A program made the position numbers and the translations under genes. From Candidatus Moraniibacteriota bacterium (lineage in GTDB: Bacteria > Patescibacteriota > Minisyncoccia > Moranbacterales > UBA1568): DNA of 64,000 bases. The stretch is from contig JBAQEZ010000003.1 of NCBI GenBank assembly GCA_049287005.1, positions 605,670-669,669 of the forward strand. Direction: 5' to 3'. Below are positions 9,407 to 12,935 of the stretch, one piece after another; position 1 is the first letter of the stretch; every line of letters starts with the position of its first letter. The notes under the pieces were generated by a model that made no database searches, was not told the origin of the DNA, and saw only the letters and a list, made by a program, of their open reading frames with translations.

Positions 9407-9433
9407 GCTGAGGCTCTGGGATGAAGTTGGAAC
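9407..9433 (+). repeat. intercistronic repeat copy A (GCTGAGGCTCTGGGAYGAAGTKGGAAC family)
   Basis: One of five copies at more than 80% identity. It lies 10 nt from the start codon of the 8812..9396 gene. Confidence 0.8.
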
Positions 9434-9459
9434 TTATCTAAATCAGGAGTAATTACATC

Positions 9460-9981
9460 TTAGCCTTTAATATACTCTTCCCTACTCATCAAACTTTTTT
9501 TATTAACAACCTTATCCAAGAAAACGATTCCCTCTAAGTGATCAAGCTCATGTTGAATGACGCGCGCTAATAATCCCTTTGCAGTAAATACAAATTTTTT
9601 ATTCTCCTTATCAAGCGCCTCCACTGTTATTTGGTAAGGCCTCGGCACCTTTCCAAAAATATTTGCTGATACGACACTTCCACACCCCTCATATCCTGAA
9701 ACTTGTTTTTTAGAGACATCAATAATCCGAGGATTAATAAAAACCCTAAGCTCATCAGTTCCATTCGTTTTCCTGAAGGTAGTATTCCTTATTTCAGTAA
9801 CAAAAATCCGTACACTTTGTCCAATTTGAGGAGCAGCCATTCCGACTAGATTTGCATGACGCATCGAATCGGTCAAGTCTTTGATTATTTTTTTGGTTTC
9901 TGGCGATGTTACTGAGGTAACTTTTTTTGATTTTTTTCTAATGATCGGATTTCCAACCTGCGTAACTGATTTGATAATCAT
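9460..9981 (-). CDS. def: peptide deformylase
   Basis: Carries the three peptide-deformylase motifs GMAAPQIG, EGCGS and HELDHLEG. Confidence 0.9.
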   Translation of the reverse strand: MIIKSVTQVGNPIIRKKSKKVTSVTSPETKKIIKDLTDSMRHANLVGMAAPQIGQSVRIFVTEIRNTTFRKTNGTDELRVFINPRIIDVSKKQVSGYEGCGSVVSANIFGKVPRPYQITVEALDKENKKFVFTAKGLLARVIQHELDHLEGIVFLDKVVNKKSLMSREEYIKG

Positions 9982-10013
9982 AATTCAAGCGTATTTACTA
10001 GTCATAAATATAT

Positions 10014-10028
10014 GCTGGGGTGCTAGGA
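10014..10028 (+). repeat. 15-nt direct repeat of the tRNA-Gln 3' end (att-like core)
   Basis: gctggggtgctagga is identical to tRNA-Gln positions 34295–34309 on the + strand. Confidence 0.7.
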
Positions 10029-10064
10029 ACGCTCACTGCTCACTTTCATATCATAACATATAAA

Positions 10065-10164
10065 AGCTCCGCTCTATAGAGCTTCTGCCCTCTAGCCCTG
10101 TTTACAGGTCACCTCAAACTGGGAACTCCCGTTCCCCGACCCTCTCCCGTTCGAATCCTAACAC
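10065..10164 (-). ncRNA. R1, a structured repeat element of about 100 nt (candidate ncRNA or element-end sequence); the strand is uncertain
   Basis: Homologous to R2 (12758–12865), with compensatory changes in two hairpins. It also contains a T-loop-like GTTCGAATCC. Confidence 0.45.
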
Positions 10165-10180
10165 TACAAACAAATAAGCT

Positions 10181-10216
10181 AAAAGGATGTCTGAAATAAT
10201 CGAACATCCTTTTAGC
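10181..10216 (-). terminator. terminator hairpin after gene 10255..10548
   Basis: A 10-bp stem AAAAGGATGT / ACATCCTTTT. Confidence 0.5.
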
Positions 10217-10223
10217 TTCATCA

Positions 10224-10250
10224 GCTGAGGCTCTGGGACGAAGTTGGAAC
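10224..10250 (+). repeat. intercistronic repeat copy B
   Basis: The same motif family. It is contiguous with the stop codon of the 10255..10548 gene. Confidence 0.8.
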
Positions 10251-10254
10251 TTAT

Positions 10255-10548
10255 TTAAGCTTTAATAATCTTCTTGATTACGGAATCAACGAATAATCTG
10301 AAGGCTGGTCGCTTCTCTTTTTCATAGATAATCTTAACGCCAAGTAGATGCCCTTTTGGACAGGAATAATCTCTTTTCGTAAGCAATACTTTGGATTCTA
10401 AAATTCGATCTATATACATTCTGCGCAAATTTCCCGGGCCATCTTTTTGGTATTGACACACCAAAGTACCACACTTTTGGCAAGTGATTTGCAAGAGTCG
10501 AGAATATCCACCTCGAGTTTTTCGGTATTTATCGTTTACAAATTTCAT
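10255..10548 (-). CDS. hypothetical zinc-ribbon protein
   Basis: CQKCG ... C ... CPKGH cysteines. The start was taken at MKFVND because the longer ORF would run into repeat C. Confidence 0.5.
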   Translation of the reverse strand: MKFVNDKYRKTRGGYSRLLQITCQKCGTLVCQYQKDGPGNLRRMYIDRILESKVLLTKRDYSCPKGHLLGVKIIYEKEKRPAFRLFVDSVIKKIIKA

Positions 10549-10558
10549 AAAATATTTT

Positions 10559-10585
10559 GCTGAGGCTGTGGGATGAAGTGGGAAC
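10559..10585 (+). repeat. intercistronic repeat copy C
   Basis: The same motif. It lies 10 nt from the start of gene 10255..10548 and abuts the stop of gene 10586..10936. Confidence 0.8.
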
Positions 10586-10936: not shown

Positions 10937-10978
10937 AGGGTTAAATTTAGAAAAAAGAATTACTGAGACTGTTTAAAT

Positions 10979-11659
10979 TTAATAATAGGTTGGTCTCATA
11001 CCAAGTTCAGGAATCGACAATGCATCAGGTGTTTCAAGAATAAATTCAACAGCTCTGACAACATCAGGAAGTTTCATAGCTTTGGATAAATCTTTCTCTA
11101 CCCCCGCATTGGTGAATAGCTTAGTTTTCATGAGGCCTGGATAAAAACCGCTTACGGTTATGTCTGAACCAGTCAATTCCATCTGCAGTGATTTGGTGAA
11201 ACCAGTGATTGCCCACTTTGAGGCATTGTAGACACTGCGCTCTTTTTGCCCGTACAAACCAGATTGGGATATGATATTAATGATTTTACCTCTTTTTGCT
11301 TCTTTCATATACGGAAGTACAGCACGAGTCAGAAGAATTGTTCCAGCAGTGTTCACATCTATCACCTCTTTGATTCTCTTCGGGTCATTTTTCTCTAGAG
11401 ACCCTTCTATCCAAAGTCCCGCATTGTTTATGAGACAATCGATTGTTTTAAATTTCTTGATAATAGATTTCATGGCCGTCTCTATTTCTTGGTAGTTAGT
11501 GACATCTGCAATTTCAAAATCACAGCCGATTTTTCTTGCAACTTGCTCTGTCTTTTTTGAATTTCTAGCAAGAATAATGACAGTGTATTTTTTGGAAAAT
11601 TTTTCTGCCAAGGCTTTTCCAAAACCTTCACTGCCTCTGGAGATAAGGATAGTTTTCAT
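10979..11659 (-). CDS. short-chain dehydrogenase/reductase (SDR)
   Basis: An N-terminal glycine-rich cofactor-binding stretch (ISRGSEGFGKALAEKF), the NNAG motif, and the YNASKWA catalytic Y-x3-K. Confidence 0.8.
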   Translation of the reverse strand: MKTILISRGSEGFGKALAEKFSKKYTVIILARNSKKTEQVARKIGCDFEIADVTNYQEIETAMKSIIKKFKTIDCLINNAGLWIEGSLEKNDPKRIKEVIDVNTAGTILLTRAVLPYMKEAKRGKIINIISQSGLYGQKERSVYNASKWAITGFTKSLQMELTGSDITVSGFYPGLMKTKLFTNAGVEKDLSKAMKLPDVVRAVEFILETPDALSIPELGMRPTYY

Positions 11660-11693
11660 ACTTTATATTTTAGTAGTTAGTTAATATTTTCGA

Positions 11694-12161
11694 TTAGGAA
11701 TTTATAGATTGCTTAATCACAGTTTCAAGTTCTTCGGGAACATCCGTTCCTATGCGATAGACTTTCCTATTTTTCATAGTTATCTCAACCGCATCAAAAC
11801 CTGAAACAGAGTATATCCACATTTTGGGCCACAGCCACAATTTTATTCCCCATCCATAATACCAATGATTCTTTACTACTTGAACCAAAGCTATCTGATT
11901 AAGCGCAAACTTCCTGGCAAAAATTCCATAACCAAATTTGATCCGAAGATAATTTTCATCAATCGACGCTGTCAGCATGGCAAACGATGCAAGAATAAAC
12001 AGAATTAATGCCATTATAGCAGAAACGGCAAAATTTGGGCCGGAGTCGACCGAGGGAGGCTCGGCAGAGGCCGTAATATAAACCCAAGTGAAAAGCACCA
12101 GCACGGCCAGCGTAACAACCAGCATCATATATCCAATTTGGGTGTGTTTGTACGAAGTCAT
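11694..12161 (-). CDS. membrane protein with a bacterial PH-like (DUF304-type) domain
   Basis: Two TM helices followed by WLWPKMWIYS...VEITMKNRKVYRI. Confidence 0.5.
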   Translation of the reverse strand: MTSYKHTQIGYMMLVVTLAVLVLFTWVYITASAEPPSVDSGPNFAVSAIMALILFILASFAMLTASIDENYLRIKFGYGIFARKFALNQIALVQVVKNHWYYGWGIKLWLWPKMWIYSVSGFDAVEITMKNRKVYRIGTDVPEELETVIKQSINS

Positions 12162-12170
12162 AAACTTTTT

Positions 12171-12197
12171 GCTGAACTTGTGGGATGACGTGGGAAC
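12171..12197 (+). repeat. intercistronic repeat copy D
   Basis: The same motif. It lies 9 nt from the start of gene 11694..12161 and abuts the stop of gene 12202..12705. Confidence 0.8.
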
Positions 12198-12201
12198 CTA
12201 T

Positions 12202-12705
12202 TTAATGCAGGAGGGCCTTTGTCTGTCTAGCTGAAGTGAGTTTGATGATTTTATCAGGGTCTTTTATTTCAGATAAAAACCTGTTAAGAGAAATAGCCTC
12301 CCCTTTTGTCCAAACAAGCTTCATAAACTTCCAATCAAATTTTTCTGGGCTACCTTCTAATTCTGGGCGAGGGTCTTTTCTGTGTTTTAACCATCGTTTC
12401 AAATAACGAATTGTAGCGACAATAGGCGGATAGTCCAGATAAATAATAGTATCAGCGCGATCAAAAATAAAGGTGCGAGCTTCTTTGTTGATATAGCCTT
12501 CAATGATCCACTCATCTCCAATACTTATCTCTTCTAATTTCTTAATAGTTTCTTTATCACCTATATATTGCCACCCTGGATTCCACATTACTCCATCCAT
12601 GAGAAAAAGCGGCAGCTTTATTTTTTCTGCAAGCTTTCTCGAAAATGTTGATTTTCCTGAAGCGCTAACTCCGACAATAACAATTTTTTTTCCAAGATTA
12701 TTCAT
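12202..12705 (-). CDS. P-loop NTPase/kinase (adenylate-kinase/topology-modulation-like)
   Basis: A Walker A motif GVSASGKST. The start was taken at MNNLGKK. Confidence 0.65.
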   Translation of the reverse strand: MNNLGKKIVIVGVSASGKSTFSRKLAEKIKLPLFLMDGVMWNPGWQYIGDKETIKKLEEISIGDEWIIEGYINKEARTFIFDRADTIIYLDYPPIVATIRYLKRWLKHRKDPRPELEGSPEKFDWKFMKLVWTKGEAISLNRFLSEIKDPDKIIKLTSARQTKALLH

Positions 12706-12711
12706 AATATT

Positions 12712-12745
12712 TTTTGGCTGGGGAGGTAGGGGGAATCGAACTGCT
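12712..12745 (+). repeat. fragment resembling the tRNA-Gln 3' end, including the T-loop (att-like direct repeat)
   Basis: ttggctggggaggtagggggaatcgaac compared with the tRNA-Gln ttggctggggtgctaggattcgaac. They are in the same orientation. Confidence 0.6.
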
Positions 12746-12757
12746 CGTTTCACTGCA

Positions 12758-12865
12758 CTCTATAGGACTTCCGTCCTCTAGCCCTCGAAACGAGGTCACC
12801 TCAAACGGGCAAACAAATGTTTTCCCGACCCCTTTCTTGTTCAATTCTTACCACCAAACTATACC
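12758..12865 (-). ncRNA. R2, a structured repeat element homologous to R1; the strand is uncertain
   Basis: Shares ctctata..cctctagccct..ggtcacctcaaac..cccgacc with R1. Its hairpin CCTCGTTTCGAGG co-varies with the R1 hairpin CCTGTAAACAGG. Confidence 0.45.
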
Positions 12866-12903
12866 AGATTTTGATACCAAAAAGCATCAAAATCTGCTAA
12901 TGC
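12862..12903 (-). terminator. hairpin between repeat E and R2
   Basis: An 11-bp stem CAGATTTTGAT / ATCAAAATCTG. Confidence 0.4.
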
Positions 12904-12908
12904 TGAGG

Positions 12909-12935
12909 CTCTGGGACGAAGTTGGAACTTTTTTA
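12909..12935 (+). repeat. intercistronic repeat copy E
   Basis: Identical to copy B across the 27-nt core. Confidence 0.8.

Follow-up and report, generated by a model that had tools for sequence, protein, structure and literature searches.

A repeat downstream of tRNA-Gln in CPR bacteria as a probable attachment half-site of a large serine recombinase family

Five direct copies of a short repeat separate small genes in the window (the whole 64-kb stretch of DNA that was analysed), and the array they form is most likely a gene-insertion hotspot of mobile elements behind tRNA-Gln and not an RNA or translation signal. Based on sequence comparison, we propose with a probability of about 0.68 that the motif is the element-derived left half-site (P arm) of attR in integrative elements, which large serine recombinases (LSRs) of a family found across CPR bacteria insert at the tRNA-Gln 3' end. 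The array would accordingly be a record of successive insertions, now down to small cargo units.

The repeat and its genes in the window

The motif, (A-rich)GTTCCMACKTCRTCCCA-N6-CAGC, comprises a 27-nt core preceded by an A-rich 5' extension. Five same-strand direct copies were found and the motif was absent elsewhere in the window. The copies, the elements E1 and E2 and the cargo genes are as follows.

9407..9439, minus strand: motif copy A (core 9407-9433 plus A-rich 5' extension), PWM score 45.8
10224..10256, minus strand: motif copy B (core 10224-10250), PWM score 48.9
10559..10591, minus strand: motif copy C (core 10559-10585), PWM score 43.1
12171..12203, minus strand: motif copy D (core 12171-12197), PWM score 36.0
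12902..12934, minus strand: motif copy E (core 12902-12928), PWM score 50.9
10014..10164, minus strand: E1, the same kind of element as E2; the terminal 15 nt, TCCTAGCACCCCAGC, match the 3' end of the local tRNA-Gln exactly
12717..12855, minus strand: E2, a structured element of ~140 nt ending in a tRNA-Gln 3'-end copy with near-tRNA spacing
8812..13566, minus strand: cargo genes of the motif-bounded units (Ser_hydrolase, def, Zn-ribbon ORF, 116-aa ORF, SDR, membrane ORF, AAA_18 kinase-like, HD_3)

The five repeats reported by the initial annotation proved real, as none of 100 dinucleotide shuffles contained a match and the chance expectation is nil. A position-weight matrix (PWM) of 243 public copies retrieved exactly the five sites in the window, with no match on its opposite strand. 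Copy D was the most diverged of the five, showing seven mismatches to the family consensus, and the fifth repeat, previously placed at 12909, starts 7 nt away at 12902.

The genes flanking the five copies were all located on the minus strand, with the motif sense to them. Copy A was positioned 27 nt past def, with the ATG of the Ser_hydrolase gene 10 nt beyond it; as described earlier, it lies beside def and outside the 15-nt repeat of the tRNA-Gln 3' end (~10013-10027). The A-rich extension of copy B was overlapped by the stop codon of the 97-aa Zn-ribbon ORF, and this copy was followed by a terminator hairpin and then E1. Copy C adjoined the TAG stop of the 116-aa ORF, a pairing that recurs in locus L002, and the next ATG was 10 nt beyond. 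The extension of copy D was overlapped by the stop of the AAA_18 kinase-like ORF, with the next ATG 9 nt beyond, while copy E was found 30 nt past the HD_3 stop and was followed by a hairpin and E2. The exact stop-motif-ATG placement described before was thus partly borne out: stops abut or overlap the extension at B, C and D, and an ATG follows A, C and D after 10, 10 and 9 nt. A spacing of the motif plus 10 nt is not general: in 189 public copies the next start lies anywhere from 2 to ~190 nt away. The motif probably looks intercistronic because tight gene packing puts stops and starts near it.

An RNA-level signal in polycistronic transcripts, namely a processing site, a coupling or re-initiation element, or a 3'-UTR protein-binding site mimicking the tRNA 3' end, was considered and appears highly improbable. 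Flanking genes invariably run in the same direction as the motif, about a quarter of the copies lie 0-5 nt past a stop codon, an ATG sometimes occurs 9-10 nt downstream, and the motif is often 5' of intrinsic terminators and is therefore transcribed. However, directional insertion alone accounts for the sense orientation, and the distance to the next start is variable (2-190 nt). The motif is limited to the tRNA-Gln locus type and is not scattered over operons, and an RNA role does not predict the synteny breakpoints observed at it. No Shine-Dalgarno sequence was found in the motif and its RNA fold was not significant (z-scores of -1.2 to +1.0), which agrees with the earlier claim that both a Shine-Dalgarno sequence and a hairpin are absent; no Rfam family matched it. 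The processing or translational-coupling role suggested initially was abandoned for lack of a conserved 9-10 nt spacing and of an Rfam match, and given that many copies precede terminators and not genes.

The same position before terminators left the suggested shared operator unsupported. A ~33-nt asymmetric, highly conserved sequence upstream of many genes could resemble an operator or promoter, but many copies meet a terminator at once or an ATG 2-10 nt away, leaving no promoter room. Neither dyad symmetry nor direct repeats occur in the motif, the genes beside it have unrelated functions, and the motif is found only behind tRNA-Gln, all of which makes such a role extremely unlikely.

Distribution behind tRNA-Gln and half-site anatomy

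The motif is widespread in CPR/Patescibacteria, where 260 copies were identified at 134 public loci (13 genome, more than 120 metagenome and no viral loci). Roughly half of these loci (66/134) were multi-copy, and mixed orientation was never found. A tRNA-Gln was located upstream on the same strand in 40 loci, with any other tRNA in at most 4, and the motif was downstream of the tRNA in 90 of 90 measured offsets. Among the 20 loci having at least 5 kb of upstream sequence, 15 contained the tRNA. Within each genome the motif was restricted to one locus type, behind tRNA-Gln; it was neither ubiquitous in intergenic DNA nor missing from related elements, the two outcomes that the initial annotation had named as refuting it. 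The motif measures 27-33 nt and is nearly invariant across phyla. The median distance from the tRNA to the first motif was 900 nt and most public units were recombinase-less, which counts against the LSR reading.

Comparison with the tRNA showed that the motif corresponds to the T-loop, T-stem and acceptor 3' strand of tRNA-Gln with 5 bp added after the T-loop-like block. The best global alignment to the tRNA-Gln G53-C74 consensus gave 16/22 identities with a single 5-nt gap, a score matched by 1 of 2000 shuffles. Sense-strand counts of GTTC.A-N(n)-CAGC peaked at n=17 (239), n=12 (59) and n=13 (25), with at most 6 for any other spacing, and antisense counts did not exceed 4. In LSR half-sites, the zinc-ribbon-domain motif lies 5 bp farther from the crossover in attP than in attB (PMC3783163). 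Judged by sequence, the offset between the motif and tRNA-Gln is that expected between LSR attP and attB half-sites.

The resemblance extends to the att sites of the Listeria A118/LI integrase (Rutherford et al. 2013, PMC3783163). A crossover-proximal CC..G.C...CAGC is common to the motif and the tRNA-Gln 3' end, as is a distal ~8-bp block, GTTCSAAY, which is 5 bp farther from the crossover in the motif, giving half-sites of ~27 bp and 22 bp, respectively. With the CA of CAGC taken as the crossover dinucleotide, the block would span half-site positions 16-24 of the motif and 11-19 of the tRNA, the same values as for LI integrase (PMC3783163). The associated proteins also have the Resolvase, Recombinase, Zn_ribbon_recom architecture of LSR systems. 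Unlike in known serine integrases, the target here is a tRNA gene, a class of target that serine integrases "have not been known for" (PMC7192596). Further differences from LI-type sites are that the right half-sites have no recognisable symmetry to the left, that attP would lie within the 3' end of the integrase ORF, so that the C-terminal tail would differ between the integrated and excised states, and that the same tRNA would receive repeated insertions. Two more observations count against the LSR reading. The arm on the LSR side does not obviously resemble an inverted motif, and the 3-nt periodicity of motif variation favoured the sense frame (65% synonymous) over the LSR frame (25%, mainly Asp/Glu changes).

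Tyrosine integrases classically target tRNA genes, and such integrases, or Xer modules, could instead have left the motif behind as a displaced tRNA 3' end or a dif-like site. They are known to give tandem arrays in which core sites recur (PMC7192596), and E1 does have a 15-nt identity block with the local tRNA. The motif, however, has no such block, its variable part matching the local acceptor strand at 3.4/7 positions and the tRNAs of other loci at 3.0/7. It is 5 nt longer than the tRNA 3' end and has no 11-6-11 dif-type dyad symmetry. A crude regular expression for the tyrosine-recombinase box-II signature matched 0 of 1958 ORFs around the arrays and in the window. This origin is accordingly given very little weight.

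Synteny junctions and the motif-linked recombinases

Related genomes were found to part exactly after CAGC (tRNA positions 71-74) of either tRNA-Gln or the motif, and new DNA therefore enters at that point. One cassette was located behind tRNA...CAGC| in L079 and behind a decayed motif, ...CAAC|, in L112. L102 and L121 were 95% identical through the motif CAGC and unrelated beyond it, whereas L055 and L067 were unrelated up to the motif CAGC and 92% identical from the next base on. One terminator module followed the tRNA in L005 and L006 and the motif in L008, L004 and L033. The motif thus keeps company with the DNA upstream of it, at the distal end of each inserted unit. The DNA 3' of the motif copies was only A-rich, with no conserved right arm (P'/B'), which counts against the LSR reading.

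Three independent elements of one CPR LSR family (L143-145, L146, L147-149) were fetched by LSR homology alone, without using the motif; in this family the LSR 3' end always overlaps tRNA-Gln. In these, and in L014, L125, L131 and L114, the 3' end of the LSR ORF was inside tRNA-Gln or a tRNA-like site. The motif occurred 3.2-6.9 kb downstream of the LSR-overlapped site in LSR-bearing elements, and in the three fetched elements it was the first tRNA-like site, at 4.5-6.9 kb, and directly past the last cargo gene. No tRNA-spaced site (n=12-13) was detected between the LSR end and the motif in the LSR-bearing elements examined. From its position as the nearest downstream tRNA-like site, we infer that the motif is the end of the LSR elements; neither an excised circle nor an empty site for comparison was seen. 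The LSR frame traversed the junction in identical phase in 3/3 of the independently fetched elements, and the LSR ORF joined to the motif reverse complement remained open (...L-W-D-D-V-G-T...). At L102 the LSR 3' end directly overlaps a motif variant, that is, a P|P' junction on the chromosome.

In the proposed mechanism, the motif would act at the DNA level. In the circular element, attP would be formed where the motif (P) meets the 3' end of the element's own LSR gene (P'), and the LSR would recombine it with attB, the tRNA-Gln 3' end, with crossover within CAGC. The products would be attL (tRNA, P' and the LSR gene) and attR (cargo, motif and the former tRNA-distal DNA). Every later tRNA insertion would displace older attR sites outward, and the five window copies would therefore be five attR halves, in units that may have lost the recombinase end and retained only sense-oriented cargo genes. 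In classical LSR theory, insertion into an occupied site (attL) is disfavoured; the arrays need repeated insertion, which counts against the proposal.

The anchor in the window and comparison with other arrays

The array is anchored by a tRNA-Gln gene, and the window also contains a resident 20.7-kb LSR element.

34293..34366, minus strand: tRNA-Gln(CTG), to which the whole array is anchored, with GTTCGAATCCTAGCACCCCAGC at its 3' end as the attB-type half-site
34267..34293, minus strand: element-side arm (P') joined to the tRNA CCA end, AAGTCGTGATAGGTTATAACGCTCGAG, proximal end of the resident element
23255..24610, plus strand: large serine recombinase of the resident element, ~32% identical to the motif-linked LSR family and belonging to another family
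13577..13598, minus strand: tRNA-3'-like site with tRNA (22-nt) spacing, GTTCTAACTCGAGGAGGCCAGC; the HD_3 and motif E unit starts directly after its CAGC

The site at 13577..13598 is probably the distal end of the resident element, given that a conserved terminal block and this site are common to L137, with unrelated genes beyond. This end has tRNA spacing and not the +5 spacing, and the 5-bp rule is therefore not valid for every CPR LSR, a further point against the LSR reading. The P' arm of the resident element was also found behind tRNA-Gln, tRNA-Trp or tRNA-Asn in L134 and L137-L140. The unit of the kinase and motif D begins directly past the CAGC of E2, and that of def and motif A comes after E1. 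No LSR of the motif-linked family was present in the window and its five units are recombinase-less, which counts against the LSR reading.

The initial annotation had suggested a cassette-junction recombination site of the integron attC kind. The first part stands, as synteny breaks at the motif 3' end, the motif moves with the upstream gene and the arrays are tRNA-anchored; the attC kind was rejected for want of inverted repeats, a fold and, by the same crude search of 1958 neighbouring ORFs, a tyrosine recombinase signature. Like integron arrays (attI, attC, IntI), these are built from units that share one orientation, mostly hold a single ORF behind a minimal leader and have a recombination-site-like repeat at the 3' end; one fixed site anchors each array, and the newest unit is presumably nearest to it. 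Unlike integrons, they show no attC hairpin with R''/L''/L'/R' and no IntI signature nearby, the anchor is a tRNA 3' end, and the repeat is near-invariant where attC sequences vary widely.

Active integron-like cassettes, in which each unit (short leader, ORF, motif) would be excised as a circle by a trans recombinase and reinserted at a CAGC, either that of tRNA-Gln or that of any tRNA-like site, the E elements included, with the motif resembling attC and the tRNA end attI, are an unlikely though more serious alternative. Apart from the form of the units, arrays of 4-12 well-conserved motifs with 350-1600 bp spacing exist (e.g., L125, L102, L047), and ORF families recur across arrays and positions. 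The window sites with tRNA or near-tRNA spacing (tRNA, E1, E2 and the LSR-element end) all precede genes and then a motif, and intact motifs in old-looking arrays suggest maintenance. However, insertion at the tRNA only, without cassette mobility, explains all junction comparisons equally, and cassette 5' ends offer a recombinase dimer no conserved recognition sequence. Decayed motifs are present in L112, L067 and L102; no cassette circle was seen, nor did any two unrelated arrays share an identical cassette with intact junctions on both sides, and identical-protein lookup gave the same arrangement only.

The proposed LSR insertions at tRNA-Gln can also be compared with tandem integrative-element arrays, in which elements integrating one after another beside a single target gene leave att sites in a row; those described mostly involve tyrosine integrases with identity blocks, in contrast to the serine integrase without an identity block here (PMC7192596). 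Islands of the SCCmec type offer an analogy in recombinase class and insertion position. SCCmec, pseudo-SCC and ACME composite islands are located at the rlmH (orfX) 3' end and are mobilised by Ccr serine recombinases, and in CIME accretion decayed integrase-less elements remain flanked by att sites. As in SCCmec, a conserved housekeeping gene would receive the insertions at its extreme 3' end and stay functional, tandem arrays accumulate downstream of the target gene, and many members are recombinase-less, those of SCCmec being bounded by direct copies of the integration site. Here, by contrast, the elements reside in CPR bacteria and the host gene encodes a tRNA rather than a protein. The repeated site differs from the host site by 5 extra bp instead of duplicating it, and the units span 0.3-1.6 kb as opposed to tens of kb.

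Copies of the motif and their genomic setting

The five motif copies that had been reported for the window were recovered in direct orientation, each with a 27-nt core, where the chance expectation was no such match. The fifth copy, placed at 12909 by the initial annotation, in fact starts at 12902, which was the sole wrong coordinate in that description. The features of the region are as follows:

9407-9433, minus strand: core of motif A
10014-10164, minus strand: structured element E1
10224-10250, minus strand: core of motif B
10559-10585, minus strand: core of motif C
12171-12197, minus strand: core of motif D
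12717-12855, minus strand: structured element E2
12902-12928, minus strand: core of motif E
34293-34366, minus strand: tRNA-Gln gene

Read on the minus strand, which carries all of the genes of the motif region, the unit has the form (T)AAATAR-GTTCCMACKTCRTCCCA-N6-CAGC. A position weight matrix built from 243 non-redundant public motif copies gave the five window copies scores of 36-51 bits and picked up no further site in the 64 kb, whichever strand was read, so that by this measure the motif is confined to 3.5 kb of the window. The A-rich extension was overlapped or abutted by a stop codon at copies B, C and D, and copies A, C and D were followed by an ATG after 10, 10 and 9 nt, in agreement with the earlier description. 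The spacing of motif plus 10 nt, which had been noted for the window, did not hold for the public copies: the distance from the motif to the next start spread from 2 to ~190 nt across the public copies, and it is therefore no property of the family. Upstream stop codons were often 0-5 nt from the public copies. Behind copies B and E stood a hairpin with a T-run, and past it a structured element of ~150 nt (E1 and E2, respectively).

A scan for the exact pattern in one genome per species returned 13 loci, all of them from Patescibacteria/CPR metagenome-assembled genomes (Saccharibacteria, Woesebacteria, Moraniibacteriota and some "Bdellovibrionales"). The "Bdellovibrionales" label of several motif-bearing assemblies is probably wrong. 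With a looser pattern, at least 120 stretches carrying the motif were found in metagenomes, while the scan of viral contigs gave 0 matches. Among the matches listed, 260 copies were distributed over 134 loci (L-numbers below), several copies were present in 66 of these loci, and orientation was never mixed inside one locus. The consensus derived from these copies was A-rich(-6..-1) GTTCCAAC-N-TCGTCCCA-N-A-S-N-S-Y-CAGC-AA.

A tRNA-Gln was called by ARAGORN in 40 of the 134 loci among the matches listed, and any other tRNA in at most four. The tRNA-Gln was always on the strand of the motif, and all motif copies in tRNA-Gln-bearing loci (90/90) were located 3' of the tRNA end. It was present in 15 of the 20 loci having at least 5 kb of upstream sequence, and the first motif was found at a median of 900 nt from it. 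The motifs of the window are located 21-25 kb downstream of tRNA-Gln, beyond a low-GC island.

Relation of the motif to the tRNA-Gln 3' end

The best global alignment of the motif with the consensus of tRNA-Gln positions G53-C74 (GTTCGATTCCTAGTCCCCCAGC) required one 5-nt gap after the T-loop-like block, GTTCCA[ACATC]GTCCCAGACTGCCAGC, and gave 16/22 identities, a value equalled by 1 of 2000 shuffles. Within the loci, the sense pattern GTTC.A-N(n)-CAGC occurred 59 times at n=12 (the tRNA spacing), 25 times at n=13 and 239 times at n=17 (the motif), with at most 6 occurrences at every other sense n and at most 4 in antisense. The variable block of the motif matched the acceptor strand of the local tRNA at 3.4/7 positions and the tRNAs of other loci at 3.0/7. 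As this fit is barely above that of random pairings, the motif is no displaced piece of the host tRNA.

For large serine recombinases (LSRs), attP half-sites are ~25 bp long and attB half-sites are shorter, and the motif bound by the zinc-ribbon domain lies 5 bp further from the crossover in attP than in attB half-sites (Rutherford et al., 2013; PMC3783163). As judged from the sequences, the relation between the motif and tRNA-Gln is exactly of this attP/attB half-site form. If the CA of CAGC is taken as the putative crossover dinucleotide, the shared distal block would fall at half-site positions 16-24 (motif) and 11-19 (tRNA), just where it lies for the Listeria integrase.

The comparison of loci showed that synteny stops exactly at the CAGC closing tRNA-Gln or the motif. 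In L079, a PhnB-like gene directly follows the tRNA (tRNA...CAGC followed by TAAGGTAAAATGA); in L112 the same gene, with its first bases alike, stands behind a decayed motif ending in ...CAAC. L102 and L121 share 95% identity over the tRNA, the first gene and the motif, and are unrelated from the base past CAGC. L055 and L067 are unlike upstream and also differ in motif quality, and are 92% identical from the base past CAGC. The terminator behind tRNA-Gln in L005/L006 is the one found behind the motif in L008, L004 and L033. Since synteny breaks at the CAGC of the tRNA or of the motif, the insertion point is placed immediately 3' of the tRNA end. The motif is part of the upstream DNA and marks the distal end of each insert, and the DNA now 3' of the motif would be the former downstream DNA of tRNA-Gln, which would explain why motifs often precede a terminator. 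Only CAGC is common to attL and attR at the junction, and the host and element sites share no long identity block. An identical-protein lookup for strain polymorphism returned only the same arrangement. For the five window motifs, the most likely reading is that of attR-type half-sites which earlier insertions, at tRNA-Gln or at tRNA-like ends, left behind.

Other classes of site were weighed against this reading. The proposed cassette-junction site of the attC kind held as regards the co-oriented cassettes with a site at each 3' end, and failed as regards the hairpin and, in the signature and Pfam screens given below, IntI: no attC-type inverted repeats were found in the motif consensus, and none of the five copies gave a significant fold, which agrees with the hairpin-free motif noted at the outset. 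The Rfam 15 covariance models gave no match for the motif at the gathering threshold in the whole window, and at E<=10 nothing relevant to the motif or the E elements was detected in region 9300-13100. The identity block of a tyrosine integrase was rejected, the motif being 5 nt longer than the tRNA end and sharing only CC..G.C...CAGC with it; E1, unlike the motif, has a 15-nt identity block with the local tRNA. A crude regular expression for the tyrosine-recombinase box-II signature found none in the 1958 ORFs of the 134 listed loci or in the window, which is weak negative evidence, and Pfam scans of 30 window genes revealed no tyrosine recombinase. A Xer/dif-like site (IMEX, pdif), which has two inverted arms of ~11 bp on either side of a 6-8 bp spacer, did not fit a consensus without dyad symmetry whose copies are all direct, nor did a REP/MITE-type repeat, which is palindromic, scattered over the genome and present in both orientations, fit a motif without a fold, in a single orientation and in only 3.5 kb of the window. 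Inspection by eye discarded a hammerhead core (CUGAUGA stands behind some copies, and the required GAAA is missing) and Shine-Dalgarno or anti-Shine-Dalgarno complementarity (the motif has CCUC, not GGAG). A sense peptide (VPTSSQSLS) or a C-terminal extension of the preceding ORF was discarded as well, the upstream frame closing within 0-42 codons and the stop frame being inconsistent.

Two families of large serine recombinases

Each LSR gene near an array ran antisense to it and stood upstream of a motif, and the genes fell into two families. The motif-linked family is ~32% identical to that of the window's own LSR and was present in L014, L102, L114, L125 and L131; further members were fetched by protein homology, the motif not being used (L143-145, L146 and L147-149). 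In seven independent elements (L014, L114, L125, L131, L143, L146 and L147), the LSR occupies the end next to the tRNA and the motif the distal one. The LSR gene, with its Resolvase, Recombinase and Zn-ribbon domains, thus belongs to the motif-bounded elements, which also carry a rolling-circle Rep protein, a regulator and a defence system. None of these LSRs is left in the five units of the window.

All motif-linked LSR ORFs end within tRNA-Gln or a tRNA-like site; in three homology-fetched elements, the tRNA is at c[11449-11520] and the LSR at 10001-11509. The first tRNA-like site downstream of the LSR is the 27-nt motif, 3.2-6.9 kb away, and in the three homology-fetched elements it stands directly behind the last cargo gene. 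In 3/3 of these elements the LSR frame runs across the junction in one and the same phase, and an LSR ORF fused to the reverse-complemented motif, as a circular attP would have it, stays open (...L-(A/G)-(L/V)-W-D-D-V-G-T...). The circular junction would read GTTCCAACATCGTCCCA-N6-CAGC, followed by the LSR-side arm (P') and the LSR 3' end, wTTGTwGAAA...TTTTTAGG. In L102, the LSR 3' end directly overlaps a motif variant, forming a chromosomal junction of the motif arm (P) with P', the arrangement that would be expected once one element inserts beside another. The P' arms are kept within each LSR family and gave no convincing alignment to the inverted motif, and the DNA 3' of the motif copies has no conserved arm.

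In the motif-linked LSRs (L143-L149, L014, L125 and L131), the crossover falls within the integrase ORF, and the last ~10-30 residues would therefore differ between the integrated and excised forms. The integrated tail, from antisense tRNA-Gln, reads ...L-R-D-L-D-S-N-Q-D..., and the excised tail, from the antisense motif, would read ...L-A-L-W-D-D-V-G-T.... This tail swap may act as a built-in switch of integrase form. Across all motif copies, the conserved 17-nt block varies at every third base. The variable positions 9, 12 and 18 are third-codon positions in the antisense LSR frame, giving Asp/Glu changes, and they are also third positions in a sense frame, V-P-T-S-S-Q, in which 65% of substitutions are synonymous, though no sense ORF spans the motif. 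Since the sense frame fits equally, with a higher synonymous fraction, the 3-nt periodicity is suggestive only.

A divergent motif subfamily (GTTCTAATRTCGTCYAYGACCCGCAGC) was observed in L102 at 2332-11573, with ~8 copies among canonical ones; its last 8 nt are those of the local tRNA-Gln acceptor end, and the LSR gene ends in one copy. Extra tRNA-Gln 3'-end fragments with tRNA spacing were also seen behind intact tRNA-Gln genes or motifs (L138, ~17700-17944, minus strand; L025/L125, ~82-120; L012; L114, ~3829), some of them preceding their own copy of the element arm. These fragments look like signs of repeated or nested recombination at the site.

The second family is that of the element resident in the window, for which the following features were located:

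13577-13598: tRNA-like site with tRNA spacing, probable distal end of the element
23255-24610: the window's own LSR
24649-24783, plus strand: LOOT RNA (RF03000), just 3' of the LSR stop and on the same strand

This LSR family is 75-80% identical among many CPR lineages. Its core, seen in L134-L140 and the window, consists of a LexA/S24-like repressor, an N6_N4 DNA methylase, a small ORF, a terminase-like gene and the LSR. To either side of this core lies defence cargo that varies from element to element, namely Shedu and an Hsp70/AAA system in the window, and elsewhere CBASS, Thoeris-like TIR, type I restriction-modification, caspase-like genes and retron/DGR-like reverse transcriptases. A conserved arm, A(A/C/G)TCGTG(C/A)TAG..., links the proximal end to the CCA terminus of tRNA-Gln (four cases), tRNA-Trp or tRNA-Asn. 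This arm often includes the perfect palindrome TCGTGCTAGCACGA, and the sequence CGAGACGCGTCGTTT was observed near both ends of the elements. At the distal end, the window and L137 share a conserved block followed by the tRNA-like site, past which unrelated genes start. Motif E was thereby rejected as the distal end of the resident element, the likely end being the tRNA-spaced site at 13577-13598 that is kept in L137. Given this end, the 20.7-kb island (~13577-34295) is a later insertion between the tRNA and the older motif array.

Besides the window, 5/7 of the loci fetched independently have the LOOT RNA next to the LSR of this family. In L135-L138 and L140 it lies ~150-580 nt upstream of the LSR start on the opposite strand, in divergent arrangement. 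The association between this RNA and the recombinase looks specific.

Order of the array and origin of its units

From the tRNA, on the minus strand, the window has the following order:

1. tRNA-Gln
2. The 20.7-kb LSR and defence element, ending at 13577
3. HD_3 gene and motif E
4. Terminator and E2, closing with a copy of a tRNA-Gln 3' end
5. Kinase-like gene and motif D
6. Membrane ORF, SDR, 116-aa ORF and motif C
7. Zn-ribbon ORF and motif B
8. Terminator and E1, whose last 15 nt are the local tRNA 3' end
9. def and motif A
10. Ser_hydrolase, panD and onward

The E elements are conserved structured sequences of 140-185 nt, found in the window, L004/L013, L006, L008, L033, L101 and L105, and their internal hairpins show compensatory changes in 12 of 34 predicted pairs. 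They close with a copy of the 3' end of tRNA-Gln, spaced as in the tRNA or nearly so, which in E2 matches the tRNA of L002/L005-type genomes and in E1 the local tRNA. As the 5' end is an inverted copy of the 3' segment, a long terminal helix may form. The element follows a motif and terminator in the window, L004/L013, L006, L008 and L033, comes directly after the motif in L105, and has no motif detectable upstream in L101. An ORF starts ~10-30 nt past its CAGC in the window, L004, L006 and L008. The element may represent a new ncRNA, or else serve the integrase as a portable landing pad. A tmRNA-like tagging role together with the motif was rejected, the topology being wrong and ARAGORN calling no tmRNA.

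Most units, in the window and elsewhere, are very small and without a recombinase, and their 5' ends have no conserved arm. Under the attR reading, each window unit would since have been reduced to sense-oriented cargo. The small units are possibly older elements trimmed by deletion in streamlined genomes, or possibly, by analogy with the recombinase-less pseudo-SCC elements, units mobilised in trans. It is known that standard LSR behaviour disfavours insertion into an occupied site. That the units form a true, active cassette system appears unlikely. We hold equally doubtful its fuller form, a CPR serine-recombinase analogue of the integron, in which the tRNA-Gln end and its E-borne copies would capture, the tRNA mimic with 5 additional bp would be the cassette site, and single-gene cassettes would be actively captured, shuffled and spread over CPR phyla. 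If this were true, the arrays would form a functioning platform for gene acquisition rather than a graveyard of elements in decay.

Among known systems, the LSR att sites share the half-site anatomy, and the SCC-type composite islands resemble the arrays in that serine recombinases insert them at a housekeeping gene's 3' end, with members in tandem and part of them without a recombinase. Tandem arrays of integrative elements (PMC7192596) are also among the closest relatives. Integron arrays are alike in appearance only, as no attC hairpin and, in the signature and Pfam screens, no IntI was detected. The literature on the sequence, on CPR intergenic motifs and on CPR serine recombinases at tRNA genes yielded no prior description. 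The mechanism of the motif arrays is ordinary, and their notable features are the phylum-wide conservation, the tRNA target, the attP inside the integrase ORF and the cassette-like arrays.

The genomes of CPR/Patescibacteria are tiny and, to our knowledge, little is known of how they gain genes. The obtained results point to a single, phylum-spanning insertion hotspot behind tRNA-Gln. At least two abundant families of serine integrases appear to use it, and their elements bring defence systems (Shedu, CBASS, Thoeris-like, restriction-modification) and small metabolic genes. The hotspot would be a clear case of tRNA genes targeted by serine integrases and would illustrate, naturally and from sequence only, the 5-bp attP/attB offset rule. 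It would further supply candidate pairs of att site and integrase for genetic tools where few exist, and the motif provides a simple means of recognising which variable part of a CPR genome was acquired horizontally.

Two further observations concern individual genes of the window. The peptide deformylase gene (9460-9981, minus strand) forms a unit of the array, flanked by E1 and motif A, and probably represents an acquired copy rather than the core gene. A 116-nt gene at 1561-1676 (minus strand) is matched by the Rfam tRNA model with 42 bits, while ARAGORN makes no call for it; this tRNA-like gene carries an insertion of 43 nt in the region of the variable loop and has a GAC anticodon loop.
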